The notes: generated by a model not told the origin, from the letters alone. DNA of 32,000 nucleotides from Candidatus Heimdallarchaeota archaeon B3_Heim (GCA_003144275.1 NJBF01000014.1:30001-62000), one strand, 5' to 3'. Counted from the stretch's first letter, positions 7,942 through 22,324 are shown. Program-made: numbers and translations.

Positions 7942-8466
7942 ATGAAGGATCAATATGTTTTGAAAATTTGTTCTTCAGGATCCTACCAAGTCGGCAAAAC
8001 CTCACTTATCAGACGATATGCAGAAGGAGCCTTTACTTCGAACTACATGCCTACAATTGGAGTCGATATCACCAGCAAAGTAATAACGGTCGACAACCAA
8101 GAAGTTAAGCTGATATTACATGATACTGCAGGTCAGGAAGTTTTTGGTAAGCTTCGTAGATTCTATTATGAAGGTTCTGTTGGATGCTTAATCGTTTATG
8201 ACATTACACGAAGAGATACTTTCGAATCACTAGAATATTGGGTAAATGATTATCGAAGCGTGCGAGGAGAGGAAAGACCCATTGCTATTATTGGAAATAA
8301 GATAGATTTGGAGGATAAAAGACAAGTGTCTACAGAAGAAGGTGTCTCAATGGCCAAATCATTCGGTATTCCGTTTTATGAGTGTTCAGCAAAAACTGGG
8401 GGAGATATTATTCCTGAAATCTATACAACGCTCGTTAAATTCAATATTGAAAAATTGGATGTTTGA
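7942..8466 (+). CDS. Rab-like small GTPase
   Basis: G1 GSYQVGKTS, G2 PTIGVD, G3 DTAGQE, G4 NKID, G5 SAK; RabF-like YYEGS and IVYDIT. Confidence 0.93.
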   Translation: MKDQYVLKICSSGSYQVGKTSLIRRYAEGAFTSNYMPTIGVDITSKVITVDNQEVKLILHDTAGQEVFGKLRRFYYEGSVGCLIVYDITRRDTFESLEYWVNDYRSVRGEERPIAIIGNKIDLEDKRQVSTEEGVSMAKSFGIPFYECSAKTGGDIIPEIYTTLVKFNIEKLDV

Positions 8467-8472
8467 GCTTAT

Positions 8473-9672
8473 TTATTCCTCTTCTCCCTTTTCCTCTATT
8501 TTTACATCTGCGACTTCTTTTATCAGATTACCAGTACTTTCAACAGGTTCTCCATGAGAAATGGACACCTTTTCCTCCATATGAACAGCCAGATTTTCAT
8601 GGATTTGATCCTCCTCTAATAAATTAGGTTCATCCTGACCACCATTTACGATTTCAATAACAGGTTCTTGTTGGGATGATGTAGATTCGGCTACGGGTAT
8701 ATCAGATGCAATTTCATCATCATCTTCTATATCCTCTGTTTGTTCAGCTTCAAAATCACCCATCAATCGTTTCAACCTCCACAACATTTGTAATTTTAAT
8801 CTACGACTCTCATTATCGAATCCAAATGATTTCGCAAATTTCGGGGTTGATGTAAATATTAAGGATCGTGCTCGTTGTTCACTAATAATGAAATTATTTT
8901 CTTCTAATTTCCCACAAATTTCAGTTACTCTCATGGGGCCAATACCTGTAACCATTTTCTTTACCAATGCTAAGGATATTGGTTGACGGTAAGCAATCTC
9001 TGTTAAAACTCTCCTCTCATCTGAAAGAAGAAATAGATCAGGTGTTAGCGATTGAAAAAATTCATGGAAAATGGGGTTAAGCTGCATTACCCATCGATCT
9101 TTGGATATTTCTTCAATAACAATCGCAGAAGTCCTTTTTCTTTTTCGACTAAGCTTTCTTATGGCTCGTTTTATTGTAGGAGAATCCTCCTCAAAATTTT
9201 CAATGAGCTCATTTGAATGGATTGGCCTTCCAATGGAAAATAACGCCCCTTCAATTCGCTCTGCAAGAGAGGCAGGGGGAATTTCCCTCCGTGAAATAAC
9301 ATATTCTTCTTCCATTGGTTGTAAAAGTTCAGCCGAAGTTTTACTCAAGATTTGTGGAGAAACGAAATCAGCAAATGATGAGTCTTGTTCGATTACATTT
9401 TTGATAAACGGGAGGATTATTTGTTCATCTGTTATTGTATCCTCTTCAAGTAATGATTCTGGGAGGATACGGGTTAAATGGGCAAACTTATCTTCAAATG
9501 GTGTTTCTTTTATTTCAAAGACTTCAACTTCTTGTACTTCTTCCTCGACTACTTCATCAACGGTTGTTTCAGAATGTATCTGCTTTTCTTCTATTACTTC
9601 TTCTGCAGGTATTTCCTTTATTGCAGATACATCTGTATCTTCTTTATTTTTTCTCCGAAATAAGCGAAACAT
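8473..9672 (-). CDS. scpB: ScpB-like (kite) protein with long acidic N- and C-terminal extensions (ScpB2)
   Basis: Central ~170 aa match the ScpB tandem wHTH: IEGALFSIGRPI..., VLTEIAYRQPIS, TSTPKFAKSFGF; lies near smc/scpA. Confidence 0.8.
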   Translation of the reverse strand: MFRLFRRKNKEDTDVSAIKEIPAEEVIEEKQIHSETTVDEVVEEEVQEVEVFEIKETPFEDKFAHLTRILPESLLEEDTITDEQIILPFIKNVIEQDSSFADFVSPQILSKTSAELLQPMEEEYVISRREIPPASLAERIEGALFSIGRPIHSNELIENFEEDSPTIKRAIRKLSRKRKRTSAIVIEEISKDRWVMQLNPIFHEFFQSLTPDLFLLSDERRVLTEIAYRQPISLALVKKMVTGIGPMRVTEICGKLEENNFIISEQRARSLIFTSTPKFAKSFGFDNESRRLKLQMLWRLKRLMGDFEAEQTEDIEDDDEIASDIPVAESTSSQQEPVIEIVNGGQDEPNLLEEDQIHENLAVHMEEKVSISHGEPVESTGNLIKEVADVKIEEKGEEE

Positions 9673-9695
9673 CGTTTTTCCTCATTTTAGGGTAT

Positions 9696-10259
9696 TTAGT
9701 CAGTAATTTGTAGTTGACTCATGGCGTAATCTTTTAAACCTCGCTGAATAGCGATTTTAACCGTATCAGAGTCATGAGGGAATTTAAACAAGTTTAAGAA
9801 ATTTTCTGTTACAGTTATTTCTCGTTTATTACCTTTAGGAGTAACATTAACTAATGACATGGTTTGGAGTTCGTCAATATCTTGTGAGACATTCTTTCCA
9901 AAGATTCGTTGTAATTTGCTTGGACTTACAATTTCCTCAAGAACATACTCTTTAAAGGCAATAAGGCTTAGAATCTTTAGAAGATGTCTCGGAACATCAC
10001 TACGCTTTATAAATGGCCAATGGAGATGTGGTGCAAGCTCATCCCGTAATTGTAACTGAACTACCTTATTTTCTAGGTTGATAATATGATAGGCTGTATT
10101 TTTATCTATATGTTCATCTCTAAGTTCCTCAATATGGCGTTCAATTTCATTTTCATCTTTTTGGATGATTTCTGACAGTTCTTGGTAGGTAACTGGCCGA
10201 TCAAAAAGAAATAATGCTGCTTCAATAATGTCAGTCTCATTTAATGATTTTAAATCCAC
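9696..10259 (-). CDS. scpB: ScpB-like (kite) protein, divergent (ScpB1)
   Basis: IIEAALFLFDRPVTYQEL, LLKILSLIAFKE, ITVTENFLNLFKF follow the ScpB pattern; GTG start preceded by a GGTGA SD-like motif. Confidence 0.78.
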   Translation of the reverse strand: MDLKSLNETDIIEAALFLFDRPVTYQELSEIIQKDENEIERHIEELRDEHIDKNTAYHIINLENKVVQLQLRDELAPHLHWPFIKRSDVPRHLLKILSLIAFKEYVLEEIVSPSKLQRIFGKNVSQDIDELQTMSLVNVTPKGNKREITVTENFLNLFKFPHDSDTVKIAIQRGLKDYAMSQLQITD

Positions 10260-10769: not shown

Positions 10770-13169
10770 ATGAGTCTGGGACTCGAATCATTAGATTTAG
10801 ATAATCAGGAAAGTAAACTTTACATAATTTTGTTAGCAAACGGTCCACAAAGCTTAGGTGAACTAATTAAGAATACTGAGTTTTCCTCGGCCGAGATAAC
10901 TAAAGCGTTGGAAGGGTTGAAGAAAAAAGAATATGCCTTCGATATCCCTGGTATTAGCATGAGATATCACGCAATTTTACCCTTTAAAGATTTGAAATCG
11001 GCTGGAGAAAAAACAATTGCTGAAATAGAAGCTCTTGCTGCACAAATAGGAGAGAATGTTGCAAAAAAAATGGATATCATTCTCTCTACAATGCGTGATG
11101 AGTCTGAGCGGATGAAAACAGCCTTAACAAGTGCTCAATCATCAATCAGTCAATCTGATACACAATCCCAAACAGAAATTGAAGAACTAACAGCAAAAGC
11201 AGTTCTTGAAATTGAACAAACTAATGATGAAAGCATCAAAATTATGGGTGAAATGATTAAGAAAAAAGAGTCTGAACATCAGGAATTGTTATCGGGAATT
11301 GGATCAACATTTGAAGAGAAAGCAGGATTGTTTGAAAATAAATACCAAGAAACAAATGCTTTGCTAGAAAATAAATACAGCGAAGGACTAGATACCATAA
11401 AAACGGCAGAAGCTAATCGAAATGCAAATTTAAAGGGATCAGTTGAGGAACTATCTGCCGGAACAAGTGCTAAACTAAGTCAGGGCTTTGAAGAAGTTCA
11501 CACTTCAATGAAGAATACTGGAGAAACAGTGATTACATCAATAGATAAACAAGAGGAAAATGCCACTAATTTCATAACAAATTCTTCCACCGAGTTATCA
11601 AGTGTAGTAAGTAACACGAGTTCTGAAGGCAAGCAGGAAATAAAAGATTCACTGAAAACATATCACGAAAATTTAAGTCAAAACCTTGATTTAAAGAAGG
11701 AAGAAGCAGTTAATTTATTCCAAAGCTCACGTGATCAATTCACTAGTAAGACCCTAGATAACGCTCAAAACATTCAAGAGTCGATCAATGAGGTACTTAG
11801 TACAGCTCAAAATCAAATCTCAGAAATGATGCAGAAAATCAATGATTCTCTCAACGAGAAATTTACGGCCGCAAAATCGCAAGTTGATAATTCAATGGGA
11901 ACTTATTCTGACTCTTTGAAGCAACAGGTTGATAGTGATTTTGAGAAGGTGATTTCTGATACAACAGGGACATTAGCTGATCTTGTTCAAAACGCAAACA
12001 GTACCTATGAGAAAGCTGTTACTGAGATAGAATCTCATTATGCTCAGTTTGAAACAGATTCAAATACTAAGATAGATACGTTTAAAGAATCTTCACTTAA
12101 CGATTTGAAGCAATCGATTTCTTCCCTAAAAACCGAGGTTCAGAAGCAAATTTCAGACTTTATACAAACGATGAAACCCCAGGAATTATTCCTTAAAGAT
12201 GAGTTAAATCGCTTCACATCCGAATTTTCAGATAGTCAGAGTCTATCTCTTTTACAATTCACAGAAACTATTGATTCATTCAAAGCAGAAGTAACGAACA
12301 AAAATCAGGAGTTATCTTCTCTCATCCAAAGCGAGATGAGCGGATTAAAGCAAACTATCCAAGAAGGGATAACTGAGATGAACTCTTTCGTACACTCTTA
12401 TGATGAAAAGTATGGAACTACTCTAATGAATGCAGCTACAAAAGCATCTGAAGGACTAATCTCAAAAACTCGTGGTCTACAGGAGAAAACTGTTGCTACC
12501 ATTAATCACATGTCAAAATCTGCAGTCAATCAGTTAGGTGAAGTACACCAGGTAATATCAGATGGTATCCAAACAGAAATATCCACTTTGGAGAAAGAGC
12601 TATCCGATTATTCTGCTAAATTTCAAGAAGTTACTAAAAAGAACGATGATGCCATGAAGAATTATCTTTTCTCCCTAGAAAAGCTTGCATCACTTGTTAC
12701 TGACACCAAACATCCTCCAGTCCAAACAGCTCCAATTGTTTCAAAGGAAGCCAATTTGACTTATATTCAAGGGATGTTTAATCGATTGAAAGGCGGTATA
12801 ACTCTCTTGATTCCATTTGTAGAGGATATTCCAGTAGACCTCATTTTAGCTACGAAAAGTCATCAACGAGTAAATTTGGTAACAATGATAGATCCTAATA
12901 CGCATATTGACTTATTAAAGAAACTTTTACAGAAACCAAATGTAAGAGTTCGTCAAATCGACTCTCGTAAATTTGAGGGCGTAGAAGGGTATTTAGCTGC
13001 CGATCGTGATGCAGAAGAAGTACTTATTGGGGTTAAAGAAGATAATGGGGATACTATAGGAATTGCTAGCCAAGCAGATTCTTTTATCGTCTTGATGGGA
13101 AAAATTGTTTTGGGAGATTATTTTTTGGCAAGATCTACCGAAATTAGTCGTGCTGAAGTAGGGGTGTAA
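10770..13169 (+). CDS. TrmB-like protein: N-terminal wHTH, ~575-aa helical/coiled-coil region, C-terminal TrmB/PLD-like alpha/beta domain
   Basis: N-terminus LGLESLDLDNQESKLYIILLANGPQSLGEL...ALEGLKKKEY...RYHAILP is TrmB-wHTH-like. Residues ~72-647 contain one Pro and no Trp or Cys. C-terminal ITLLIP, VNLVTMID, NVRVRQID, AADRDAEEVLIG resembles TrmB C-terminal domains. AAGGTGA upstream. Confidence 0.75.
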   Translation: MSLGLESLDLDNQESKLYIILLANGPQSLGELIKNTEFSSAEITKALEGLKKKEYAFDIPGISMRYHAILPFKDLKSAGEKTIAEIEALAAQIGENVAKKMDIILSTMRDESERMKTALTSAQSSISQSDTQSQTEIEELTAKAVLEIEQTNDESIKIMGEMIKKKESEHQELLSGIGSTFEEKAGLFENKYQETNALLENKYSEGLDTIKTAEANRNANLKGSVEELSAGTSAKLSQGFEEVHTSMKNTGETVITSIDKQEENATNFITNSSTELSSVVSNTSSEGKQEIKDSLKTYHENLSQNLDLKKEEAVNLFQSSRDQFTSKTLDNAQNIQESINEVLSTAQNQISEMMQKINDSLNEKFTAAKSQVDNSMGTYSDSLKQQVDSDFEKVISDTTGTLADLVQNANSTYEKAVTEIESHYAQFETDSNTKIDTFKESSLNDLKQSISSLKTEVQKQISDFIQTMKPQELFLKDELNRFTSEFSDSQSLSLLQFTETIDSFKAEVTNKNQELSSLIQSEMSGLKQTIQEGITEMNSFVHSYDEKYGTTLMNAATKASEGLISKTRGLQEKTVATINHMSKSAVNQLGEVHQVISDGIQTEISTLEKELSDYSAKFQEVTKKNDDAMKNYLFSLEKLASLVTDTKHPPVQTAPIVSKEANLTYIQGMFNRLKGGITLLIPFVEDIPVDLILATKSHQRVNLVTMIDPNTHIDLLKKLLQKPNVRVRQIDSRKFEGVEGYLAADRDAEEVLIGVKEDNGDTIGIASQADSFIVLMGKIVLGDYFLARSTEISRAEVGV
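11328..11393 (+). repeat. in-frame 33-nt tandem repeat (11-aa unit) inside the TrmB-like gene
   Basis: ttgtttgaaaataaataccaagaaacaaatgct / ttgctagaaaataaatacagcgaaggactagat = LFENKYQETNA / LLENKYSEGLD. Confidence 0.65.
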
Positions 13170-13173
13170 GCTC

Positions 13174-14034
13174 CTACTGCTCTTTTTTTCTTTTTCCAAT
13201 AACCTTGATGTAAATTTCATAAGGTGGATTTAGTTCCTGTTCAGCGGTTATCGATTCATCGCGGAATAAATATAACAGAGATATTAGAACTCTTGCTCGA
13301 GTTAACCGTTTTTGCTCTTCTGAACCATCTTTTGTTTCCATTCCCCTAACTAACTTAGTAAATTCAGCCTCATCATTTTTATCTTGTTTAGCAAGGGTTT
13401 GAATCACTTCAAATGTTCGATTGACAATATCTTCAATCGCTACCCGATCTAAATCTAATTCATAATCAAAGCTCTCAAAGTCAGAAATTACTAATTTTCG
13501 TCTTTTACGTATTTCTTCCCCAGATTCCCTTTGTTTCCTCTTTTCTTCCTTAATCCTTTCAATTTTAAGCTTTTCATCTTCCTCTTGTAGACCTAATAAT
13601 AATTCTGCGTAGAACTCATCTGGATTAGCACTTTCTGCAAGTGATAATAATTCTCTCGTAATATAATATGGTAAGGGAATTTTAAACTTAAAAGCTCGTC
13701 TTTTTGTTCTTATAGAAATTTTTTCTTCTTGTTTTTTTTCGTATTTGATAGCTAGACTTACTTTCTTCTTATGAATTCGTGCAGCAGAATAGATGGCTTG
13801 CCCCAGAATACGAAAATCTAATCCTTGGTCCAATAATTTACGATAAAACTCAGGAAGAATTTCCTTTAGTTTGAATTCCTTAATGTAAGCAACTCTTTCA
13901 GGAAATAGATCTGGATTAATTAAATAAACAAAGGGTTCTTCCAAGAAAAATTGTTCACTATGGCTGAAAAGCCTGATGTACTCGTCTTCGGTATCAGGTG
14001 CTTCCTCATCTTGAGTGTTTTCAGGTTCAGCCAT
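13174..14034 (-). CDS. scpA: ScpA-like kleisin
   Basis: Directly downstream of smc (41 nt). N-terminal LDFRILGQAIYSAARIHKKKV resembles the kleisin N-terminal helix (AA.LL..KS). C-terminal EFTKLV...RVLISLLYLFRDESITAEQELNPPYEIYI resembles the ScpA cap wHTH (FLALL.L....I...Q...F..I.I). Confidence 0.82.
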   Translation of the reverse strand: MAEPENTQDEEAPDTEDEYIRLFSHSEQFFLEEPFVYLINPDLFPERVAYIKEFKLKEILPEFYRKLLDQGLDFRILGQAIYSAARIHKKKVSLAIKYEKKQEEKISIRTKRRAFKFKIPLPYYITRELLSLAESANPDEFYAELLLGLQEEDEKLKIERIKEEKRKQRESGEEIRKRRKLVISDFESFDYELDLDRVAIEDIVNRTFEVIQTLAKQDKNDEAEFTKLVRGMETKDGSEEQKRLTRARVLISLLYLFRDESITAEQELNPPYEIYIKVIGKRKKEQ

Positions 14035-17977: not shown

Positions 17978-18547
17978 TCAAAATTTCCAAGCTTTTCCCT
18001 TTTTCTCCCTCTCTACAAGTAAAATACCTAGATGAGAAAAGGGTGAACTAAGTCCCTCTCCAGATTTAGCTGAACAAAAATAATATCCAGATAATCCATA
18101 ATCTTTAACGAAATTCTCCGCTGCCTCAGATATCAATTTTCTTTTATCGTCCTCTACTGTATCTATCTTATTTCCCAACAGAATTATCGGGAGGTCAGGA
18201 TTATTGTGCTCTTTCATCATTTTAAGCCATTCAGGGATTTCTGAAAGAGTTTGAATCCGTGAAGTGTCAAATGCGACAATACCACCTGAGGATCCTTGAC
18301 AGTAACCAGGAAAAAGTGATTTAAAGCGATTTTCTCCCGCATAATCCCAATAGGCTATTCTGAGTATTGTCTCGCCTACTTCATGATCTAAAACCAGAAA
18401 GTTCACTCCAACAGTACTTATTGCAGGAATATAACTATTTGTTTCAAGACGTTTGAGTAAGGTAGTTTTTCCCACACCGCCAGGACCTGCCACTACAACT
18501 TTAACAGTTAAAACATCTGGGGTAAATTGAAACTTACTACTGGCCAT
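17978..18547 (-). CDS. Ras-superfamily small GTPase (Rab/Roc-like), G3 = DYAGE
   Basis: G1 GPGGVGKTT, G2 STVGVNF, G3 WDYAGENRF, G4 NKID, G5 SAK. Confidence 0.92.
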   Translation of the reverse strand: MASSKFQFTPDVLTVKVVVAGPGGVGKTTLLKRLETNSYIPAISTVGVNFLVLDHEVGETILRIAYWDYAGENRFKSLFPGYCQGSSGGIVAFDTSRIQTLSEIPEWLKMMKEHNNPDLPIILLGNKIDTVEDDKRKLISEAAENFVKDYGLSGYYFCSAKSGEGLSSPFSHLGILLVEREKKGKAWKF

Positions 18548-18571
18548 AAGTCATTCATTTCCAAGTAATGA

Positions 18572-19096
18572 TTACTCTTTGTTTTTCTGTTTCTCTAGAA
18601 TTCGAGTCACAAGTCTATGAAGGAGCTCTTGGGTGTTTTTTCCTGTGATTGCACTGGTTGTAAAATATTCATCAATATTGTGCTGATTTCTGAATTCATT
18701 AATCTCAACAGGTGAAATAGACAAACCAAGGTCGGCTTTTGTAGAGACTAGGAAATTTGTACTCTCTGTTTCCCTACCATATACCTGTATCCATTCATGG
18801 AGGGCATTAAAAGTTTGTTCTCGTGAGGGGTCAAATGCAAGTATTAGTCCGTCGCAATCAGAGGAGTATTGTGGAAAAATCGTCTGAAAACGCGGCTCTC
18901 CACCGAAATCAAATAGATGAACGTCGATAATATCACCATTATCCAATGAAATACTTTTAACTGTAAAATCAAATCCTACAGTGGAGTAGAGGTCTTTTAA
19001 AGGGAATTTTTCATGCATAAATCGATGTACAAGTGATGATTTTCCCACGCGTTTTTCTCCTGCGATTACCACTTTAACTGATTTATTCTGTGACAC
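18572..19096 (-). CDS. Ras-superfamily small GTPase (Rab/Roc-like), G3 = DFGGE
   Basis: G1 GEKRVGKSS, G2 STVGFDF, G3 FDFGGEPRF, G4 TKAD, G5 SAI; GTG start. Confidence 0.9.
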   Translation of the reverse strand: MSQNKSVKVVIAGEKRVGKSSLVHRFMHEKFPLKDLYSTVGFDFTVKSISLDNGDIIDVHLFDFGGEPRFQTIFPQYSSDCDGLILAFDPSREQTFNALHEWIQVYGRETESTNFLVSTKADLGLSISPVEINEFRNQHNIDEYFTTSAITGKNTQELLHRLVTRILEKQKNKE

Positions 19097-21700: not shown

Positions 21701-22324
21701 TCAGGTTTGTCGTTGTTCTGTAACTGTGCGTTGGGGAGCTGCTTTCAATCGACTTGTAGTTCTACTAGTTTTCCGTTGATTTTCAACAAATCTCATGACA
21801 TTCGTTCCGAGAAGGCCAAAAGCATTCTGAATATTGATGCCTGTTTTTGCTGATGTCTCTATATAATGACATTCGAATCCTTCTCCTTTTGTGAGGTTCG
21901 ATAGACGATTGGTAAATACTCGGCCTTGTTCTGGAGAAACCGTATCGTCAGATAATTCTCTCATATCAATCTTGTTAGCTACCACCACTATAGGCACACG
22001 TCCTCTCCCATTATTCGCCCAAAGCTCATTAATCCATTTTGGTGTGTTAAAATAAGAATCAGGACGGGTTACATCATAAACCAAGAGGGCACCGACACAT
22101 CCTTTGTAATATACTTCTCTAACGGCATCAAACCGTTGTTGTCCAGCTAAATCCCAGATTTGATAGCGGATATCCGATCCATTAACCATATCGTCTCTCA
22201 TAGCGAAATCCGCACCGATAGTCAGGAGATATTGTGATTTGAAACCTTTACCTAAGTACCGCTCGCGAATAGCTGTTTTTCCTACCCCTCCATCTCCAAT
22301 AAGTACAATTTTTAAAACGGTCAC
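21701..22324 (-). CDS. Rab-like small GTPase with a basic C-terminal tail
   Basis: G1 GDGGVGKT, TIGADF, YQIWDLAGQQRF, YYKGC, LVYDVT, NKID, ETSAK. Confidence 0.95.
   Translation of the reverse strand: MTVLKIVLIGDGGVGKTAIRERYLGKGFKSQYLLTIGADFAMRDDMVNGSDIRYQIWDLAGQQRFDAVREVYYKGCVGALLVYDVTRPDSYFNTPKWINELWANNGRGRVPIVVVANKIDMRELSDDTVSPEQGRVFTNRLSNLTKGEGFECHYIETSAKTGINIQNAFGLLGTNVMRFVENQRKTSRTTSRLKAAPQRTVTEQRQT

Follow-up and report, generated by a model that had tools for sequence, protein, structure and literature searches.

A conserved tandem pair of diverged ScpB paralogues as a candidate heterodimeric kite for the single SMC-kleisin locus of Hodarchaeum and its relatives

The stretch of DNA analyzed here (the window) comprises 32,000 nucleotides of the Candidatus Heimdallarchaeota archaeon B3_Heim assembly (GCA_003144275.1 NJBF01000014.1:30001-62000), a 94%-complete genome of the genus Hodarchaeum in the order Hodarchaeales (Heimdallarchaeia, Asgard archaea), and all coordinates are counted from its first letter. 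The locus under study encodes two ScpB-family kites, the tandem winged-helix accessory subunits of SMC complexes. The first gene, scpB1 (9696-10259, minus strand, GTG start), encodes a protein of 187 amino acids (B1), which appears to be the derived paralogue, and the second, scpB2 (8473-9672, minus strand), a protein of 399 amino acids (B2), which appears to be the conservative one. An initial annotation of the window had described two adjacent, co-oriented genes with a 23-nucleotide gap, and both open reading frames are found exactly so, with the spacer that divides the stop codon of B1 from the start codon of B2 at 9673-9695. Upstream of the kites and on the same strand lie the only SMC gene of the genome (14076-17663; 1195 amino acids) and, adjoining it, a gene for a divergent ScpA-type kleisin (scpA; 13174-14034, minus strand; 286 amino acids). 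The pair is a real and conserved feature, and the locus is of the Smc-ScpAB type with its kite encoded by two diverged genes.

Both kite proteins match the Pfam family PF04079 (SMC_ScpB; model length 160, cut-off 27.4 bits) from model position 2 to 153, B1 with 68.6 bits (expect value [E], 5.9e-19) and B2 with 59.4 bits (E, 4.1e-16) over its residues 139 to 287. The NCBIfam equivalog model TIGR00281 scores them at 41 and 52 bits, below its cut-off of 89.2. On these sequence matches, B1 and B2 are members of the ScpB family and not typical orthologues. A profile built from 21 B1 orthologues finds the Pyrococcus ScpB structure 6JUV (E, 2.4e-20), as does the profile of B2 orthologues (E, 3.2e-19). 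The AlphaFold2 model of B1 (pLDDT, a predicted score for the local distance difference test, 76) contains two winged helices, each of the order helix-helix-helix-strand-strand, and its ten best Foldseek matches are all ScpB structures (6JUV at 7e-11, 3W6J, and 4I98); beyond ScpB, the matches pass to Nse1-Nse3-Nse4 and MukE, with 7DG2_C in 11th place (E, 2e-3). B2 likewise qualifies as a predicted pair of tandem winged helices, from its full-length Pfam match and its profile match to 6JUV. The tandem winged-helix ScpB pattern that the initial annotation had seen in both genes is borne out by the full-length PF04079 matches and by the structural search with B1, and so is the dissimilarity it had noted between them, with a BLASTP identity of 26% (E, 5e-5).

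The two paralogues differ in architecture as well as in sequence. B1 is a bare tandem winged-helix core without either arm and without a C-terminal helix. In its second winged helix, an insertion of 5 to 6 residues after IAFKEY replaces the conserved RQP motif, and this insertion is conserved in all three lineages in which the pair occurs. The motif contrast quoted in the initial annotation is present in the translations, with IAFKEYVLEEIV at residues 100-111 of B1 and IAYRQPI at residues 226-232 of B2. The ScpB core of B2 spans approximately residues 130 to 290 and is followed by a conserved basic helix (approximately residues 288 to 305). Its N-terminal arm of 130 residues (9280-9672) has a basic-aromatic tip, MFRLFRR followed by lysines, and then the conserved motifs ETPFE..F and FISPE set within variable acidic sequence. 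At the other end (8473-8760), the WRLKR helix is followed by an acidic, low-complexity tail of approximately 90 residues, which ranges from 60 to more than 200 residues among orthologues. The B1 and B2 families each have their own set of invariant residues. Ratios of nonsynonymous to synonymous substitution (dN/dS), taken from unsaturated orthologue pairs, are 0.03 to 0.09 for B1 in 8 of 9 pairs (the closest pair, in which dN is tiny, gives 0.23), 0.05 to 0.09 for the B2 core, and 0.03 to 0.13 for scpA. Both kites are therefore under strong purifying selection, comparable to that on scpA.

The B1/B2 pair is present in 19 of the 21 Hodarchaeum genomes, the two without it being 71% and 80% complete, and a second family of the order has it in both of its genomes, where smc, scpA, B1, and B2 are contiguous. 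One further contig, from a third lineage, carries scpA-B1-B2 with 4-nucleotide junctions, and its two kites fall one in the B1 clade and one in the B2 clade. Because it recurs in this way across the genus, the second family, and the further contig, the tandem arrangement lies far beyond chance. Gene order is constant, the short copy (B1) preceding the long copy (B2), and none of the loci seen carries only one of the two. The spacer between them measures 9 to 34 nucleotides in 19 of 21 orthologous loci and 4 nucleotides in the third lineage. The Hodarchaeum loci keep the order smc-scpA-B1-B2 with an antisense gene inserted between scpA and B1. The two kite genes are probably co-transcribed; a 156-nucleotide contig from metatranscriptome library X17 corresponds to 9454-9599 within B2 at 100% identity, but it does not bridge B1 and B2, could reflect DNA carry-over, and is neutral on this point.

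The distribution of the pair is narrow. Our survey of Asgard archaea sampled 301 genomes, and nearly all of the approximately 280 others encode one canonical ScpB (E, about 1e-33) or none. A few have two PF04079 matches; in those that were checked, the two matches are at different loci, the second being a diverged kite beside another SMC. In two other Asgard genomes (G230:C1:1706000-1725999 and G171:C10:778500-798499), a second SMC of approximately 1,200 amino acids is directly followed by such a diverged kite (PF04079, about 63 to 69 bits), and the same genomes have a locus encoding an unusually long SMC (approximately 1,480 amino acids), ScpA, and a canonical ScpB. A scan of approximately 185,000 species genomes recovered B1-type proteins (at least 60% identity) only from contigs of the Hodarchaeum group, whose records are mostly labelled Hodarchaeota or Heimdallarchaeota, with a few bearing other Asgard labels. 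Two Hodarchaeum assemblies show additional copies, one with an extra canonical-type ScpB (G018:C70:7543-7989; E, 2.5e-33) and the other with two copies of the B1/B2 pair (G012, contigs C485 and C38). Both cases are most simply explained by mixed bins, with an estimated contamination of 4 to 6%.

The SMC of the locus aligns to TIGR02169 over its full length with 606 bits, below the equivalog cut-off of 729 bits. Its best matches in the PDB are the Pyrococcus SMC (3e-102), followed by SMC2, SMC3, SMC4, and SMC1 (1e-47 to 1e-31), and SMC5 comes much lower (1.5e-11). By these comparisons, it is an SMC of the SMC1-4/prokaryotic type and not of the SMC5/6 type. Percent identity did not help to class it: it is 27 to 29% identical to each of the two SMC paralogues found in other Asgard archaea, and both of those paralogues themselves appear SMC1-4-like and not SMC5/6-like against the PDB.

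The neighboring 286-amino-acid protein gave no match to PF02616 (SMC_ScpA) at E ≤ 1, nor did any other protein of the genome. Four lines of evidence, two from profile hidden Markov models (HMMs) and two from structure prediction and comparison, identify it as a divergent ScpA-type kleisin. In two other Asgard genomes, the HMM of its orthologues finds the genes flanked by SMC and canonical ScpB (7e-21 and 7e-15), and in the third lineage it finds the immediate upstream neighbor of B1/B2 (3e-80). In the AlphaFold2 model (pLDDT, 64), an N-terminal helical domain with a long helix at residues 74 to 114 leads through a middle region of approximately 85 residues to a C-terminal winged helix like the domains that bind the SMC cap. 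Among its ten best Foldseek matches, eight are kleisin chains (ScpA, Scc1, and Brn1), mostly through their C-terminal winged helices; the matches to 4I99_C (template modeling score, 0.78), 6QPQ_B, 5H66_C, 1W1W_E, and 6QJ2_B have template modeling scores of 0.62 to 0.78 at weak E values of 0.026 to 0.13, and a direct profile comparison with 4I99_C gave an E value of 0.68.

We also looked for other partners that the two kites might serve. There is no other PF04079 match in the 94%-complete genome, and the HMMs of B1, B2, and ScpA detected no further kite or kleisin there. A second SMC complex was considered and rejected, the other weak SMC matches being coiled-coil proteins without an SMC domain. 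With one SMC, one kleisin, and no further kite found, a spare kite would have no other complex to join. Separately, a region outside the window (G000:C96:88000-105404) encodes two adjacent proteins of approximately 1,200 amino acids that belong to no Pfam family and have weak coiled-coil similarity to SMC; this gene pair adjoins a gene for a tubulin/FtsZ-family GTPase.

Phylogenetic and profile analyses place the origin of both copies within the ScpB-like lineage. HMMs of B1 and B2 match canonical ScpBs at 1e-17 to 1e-24 and the second Asgard kites only at 4e-4 to 1.5e-9. The possibility that one copy represents the Nse1/3-like second kite of Asgard archaea is ruled out by this difference, and B1 and B2 alike derive from that lineage, neither descending from Nse1/Nse3 or from the second Asgard kite type. 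Among 96 ScpB cores placed in a tree, each forms a strongly supported clade within the ScpB radiation, B1 on a long branch. B2 groups with single-copy ScpBs that have the IAYRQP motif and a basic C-terminal helix of the type KLQ..WRLKR. Both features are common to B2 and the single-copy Heimdallarchaeial ScpBs, a related C-terminal helix occurs in the single ScpB of a neighboring Heimdallarchaeial family, and long acidic N-terminal arms are found in the canonical ScpBs of other Asgard archaea as well. Approximately unbiased tests did not reject a single clade of B1 and B2 (P = 0.154) or a clade of B1, B2, and their single-copy sisters (P = 0.485); the tested groups were chosen with the tree already in view, the tree was a quick one, and long branches are involved. 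Neither the tree nor the tests date the duplication. The overall pattern fits a tandem duplication of an ancestral scpB followed by asymmetric divergence, confined to a subclade of Hodarchaeales, in which B2 would have kept ancestral features (IAYRQP, the WRLKR helix, and acidic tails) and B1 would have been stripped down and gained its insertion.

The contact between the two kites was examined by modeling B1 with the B2 core (residues 125 to 310), using a 21-row alignment for each. The complex scored 0.74, compared with 0.14 for the best of three controls, a result counted as supporting binding; the mark it passed is reached by 58 of 80 solved complexes and by 2 of 110 mismatched pairs. At least 57% of the contacts recur between runs, and the partner has a pLDDT of at least 67. 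The modeled interface joins the N-terminal winged helices (B1 residues 6 to 88 against B2 residues 131 to 213) with pseudo-twofold symmetry, in the mode of solved ScpB homodimers. B1 and B2 can thus be modeled as an ScpB-type dimer, which does not imply that they prefer each other over themselves.

Taken together, we favor the reading, probable although well short of certain, that B1 and B2 are the two halves of a heterodimeric kite serving a single condensin-type SMC complex. The case rests mainly on genomic evidence: the genome has a single SMC and a single kleisin, and its two kites are coupled, always occur together, are both under selection, and retain complementary features; the contact between B1 and B2 is itself a prediction of the model. 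Two copies of ScpB are known to bind one ScpA asymmetrically, in non-equivalent positions (3W6J and 4I98; PMC7055376). Since bacterial ScpA holds its two ScpB copies in this non-equivalent manner, each duplicate could specialize for one position. Under the favored reading, the ancestral ScpB gene downstream of smc and scpA would have duplicated in tandem in the ancestor of a Hodarchaeales subclade, and each copy would have become specialized for one of the two non-equivalent positions on ScpA, B2 keeping the IAYRQP motif, the basic C-terminal helix, and the acidic arms and B1 becoming a minimal core with a remodeled second winged helix. As in ScpB homodimers, the N-terminal winged helices would join the two, which would sit together on the middle region of the divergent ScpA, giving a complex of the composition SMC2-ScpA-B1-B2 in which the 1:1 stoichiometry and the position-specific roles of the kites are inferred. 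The asymmetric ScpB1/ScpB2 kite proposed in the initial annotation is therefore retained as the best reading of two selected, full-length kites at the only SMC and kleisin locus of the genome, with a predicted dimer of their N-terminal domains.

Several observations weigh against the heterodimer. In Hodarchaeum, the antisense gene splits the B1-B2 unit from smc-scpA. The divergence of the kleisin leaves it without a match to any Pfam family. No binding was seen in vitro for six archaeal ScpA-ScpB pairs (PMC7055376), although genetic evidence provides a positive precedent for an archaeal ScpB-kleisin partnership, and archaeal ScpA may depend on SMC to make its kite site accessible (PMC11840125). 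The modeled interface residues belong mostly to a hydrophobic core conserved in both families (E13/E141, F17/F145, and L71/L198), and we found none in the model that would forbid homodimers. Because the interface mode is that of solved ScpB homodimers, the pass of the complex model may reflect likeness to those structures; it would be expected on that ground, is no proof of binding, and does not discriminate a heterodimer from homodimers.

The alternative that survives best is that B1 and B2 each form homodimers, giving two alternative kites on the same SMC-ScpA core and hence two flavors of complex whose properties would differ, for instance in whether the B2 arms are present. An analogue is provided by eukaryotic condensin I and II, which have their SMCs in common and differ in accessory subunits. 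In B1 and B2 alike, the N-terminal winged helix retains its conserved hydrophobic dimer interface, every solved prokaryotic kite is a homodimer (e.g., 6JUV, 3W6J, and 4I98), and the strong difference in appendages between B1 and B2 would suit different functions. The tight coupling of the genes in one probable transcription unit, at 9 to 34 nucleotides, which offers no obvious means of expressing them differentially, their strict co-occurrence in every locus seen, and the heterodimer model that passes its controls all speak for the other side, and we consider this alternative unlikely.

A different explanation holds that one or both copies are no longer partners of the kleisin and work on their own as winged-helix proteins that bind DNA or regulate, a role suggested for those archaeal ScpB homologues that show no ScpA binding. 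The lack of interaction in all six of the archaeal pairs mentioned above (PMC7055376), the high divergence of the present kleisin, and the loss from B1 of RQP, the most conserved ScpB motif, would all agree with it. The adjacency of scpA, B1, and B2 is nonetheless conserved in three lineages, with genes that overlap or nearly do so, and the middle region of the present ScpA is long, at approximately 85 residues in the predicted structure, against 30 to 66 residues in the non-binding archaeal ScpAs (by the definition of PMC7055376). We regard this explanation as improbable. Finally, the idea that one copy is a decaying duplicate or an artefact of assembly or annotation, which could draw on the lower Pfam scores of the pair (about 60 to 69 bits, against 113 to 131 for the canonical Asgard matches listed), is effectively refuted by intact frames of both genes in more than 20 independent assemblies, dN/dS values of 0.03 to 0.09, and family-specific invariant residues.

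Compared with Smc-ScpAB (3W6J, 4I98, and 6JUV), the locus has the same smc-scpA-scpB gene order, SMC and kite families, and kleisin architecture, and the predicted B1/B2 dimer is likewise formed through the N-terminal winged helices. It differs in having two diverged kites, about 26% identical, in place of one gene product, in a kleisin without a match to the ScpA family of Pfam, and in the long N- and C-terminal arms of B2 and the remodeled second winged helix of B1. Compared with Nse1-Nse3 on Nse4 (7DG2), the likeness lies in two paralogous tandem winged-helix kites proposed for one kleisin and in a distant fold similarity to B1, whereas B1 and B2 lack both a RING domain and any sequence match to MAGE or Nse1, their SMC belongs to the SMC1-4/prokaryotic type, the kleisin has its orthologues beside canonical ScpB, and the duplication is lineage specific and falls inside an ScpB-like clade. 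A Pfam scan of B1 and B2 at E ≤ 1 returned neither MAGE (PF01454) nor SMC_Nse1; PF01454 also found nothing in the genome at this threshold, a result of little weight given that control genomes gave no signal either. Because the duplication is lineage specific and within the ScpB-like clade, the origin of the pair is independent of Nse1/Nse3, and the parallel between the two systems is one of logic and not of descent. The suggestion in the initial annotation that the pair prefigures the eukaryotic state is therefore unsupported, in view of the ScpB-like origin, the absence of MAGE and Nse1 matches, the SMC1-4-type SMC, and the restriction of the duplication to a subclade, while its notion of a parallel to Nse1/Nse3 stands in logic.

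Kite paralogues in archaea have been described before, as the initial annotation had anticipated. van Hooff et al. (bioRxiv 10.1101/2024.01.07.573240) reported ScpB-like and Nse1/3-like kites in Asgard and TACK archaea, and a third kite, related to Nse3, in some members of the Hodarchaeales in the wider sense; the paralogues were encoded by separate operons that each had an SMC and a kleisin of their own, and were read as parts of different complexes, and one ScpB-like kite was counted in Hodarchaeum mangrovi. The present case resembles theirs in the presence of more than one kite gene in Asgard archaea, including the wider Hodarchaeales, and differs in that both kites are ScpB-like, adjacent, and have one SMC and kleisin between them. 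The duplication of kites as such was thus already on record, and the arrangement reported there is a different one; we found no description of a tandem ScpB pair in the literature searched, subscription journals excepted.

The gene between scpA and scpB1 (10770-13169, plus strand) encodes a protein of 799 amino acids with a TrmB-type helix-turn-helix (PF01978 TrmB at residues 5 to 69; E, 1.3e-7) and a very long helical middle, predicted as a coiled coil. Seventeen Hodarchaeum loci have it at the same position, the contiguous operon of the second family lacks it, and it is context and not part of the kite pair. TrmBL2, a TrmB family member of Thermococcus kodakarensis, is a roadblock that positions Smc-ScpAB (PMC11840125), and by analogy a functional link of the antisense gene to the SMC locus is conceivable. 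Four genes for Ras/Rab-like small GTPases flank the SMC locus (7942-8466, plus strand; 17978-19096 and 21701-22324, minus strand). The GTPase gene downstream of B2 (PF00071; E, 5.6e-49) is kept in this position in the Hodarchaeum loci examined.

To our knowledge, all solved or characterized prokaryotic kites (ScpB, MukE, and JetB) are homodimers of one gene product, and we know of two-gene kite pairs only from eukaryotic SMC5/6. This conserved and selected pair of ScpB paralogues on one SMC and one kleisin, whose heterodimer we hold to be probable, would give prokaryotes a first candidate heterodimeric kite and would add to the history of SMC complexes an independent case of the change from homomer to heteromer, one that is absent from the most recent comparative survey. 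The pair also offers a natural system for the roles of the two non-equivalent kite positions on the kleisin and for the disputed question of whether archaeal ScpB binds ScpA. A bolder proposal, which we consider improbable, is that the condensin/cohesin-type complex of Hodarchaeales, now proposed to be the order of archaea nearest to eukaryotes, already has an obligate two-subunit kite with position-specific roles, the arms of B2 contacting DNA, the membrane, or the SMC and B1 acting as a minimal clamp. If this were true, the pair would be a living example of the step from homodimer to heterodimer, assumed but never observed, that leads towards the asymmetric accessory subunits of eukaryotic SMC complexes, and the condensin/cohesin-type complex of the archaeal ancestor could have had two distinct kites before hawks took their place.

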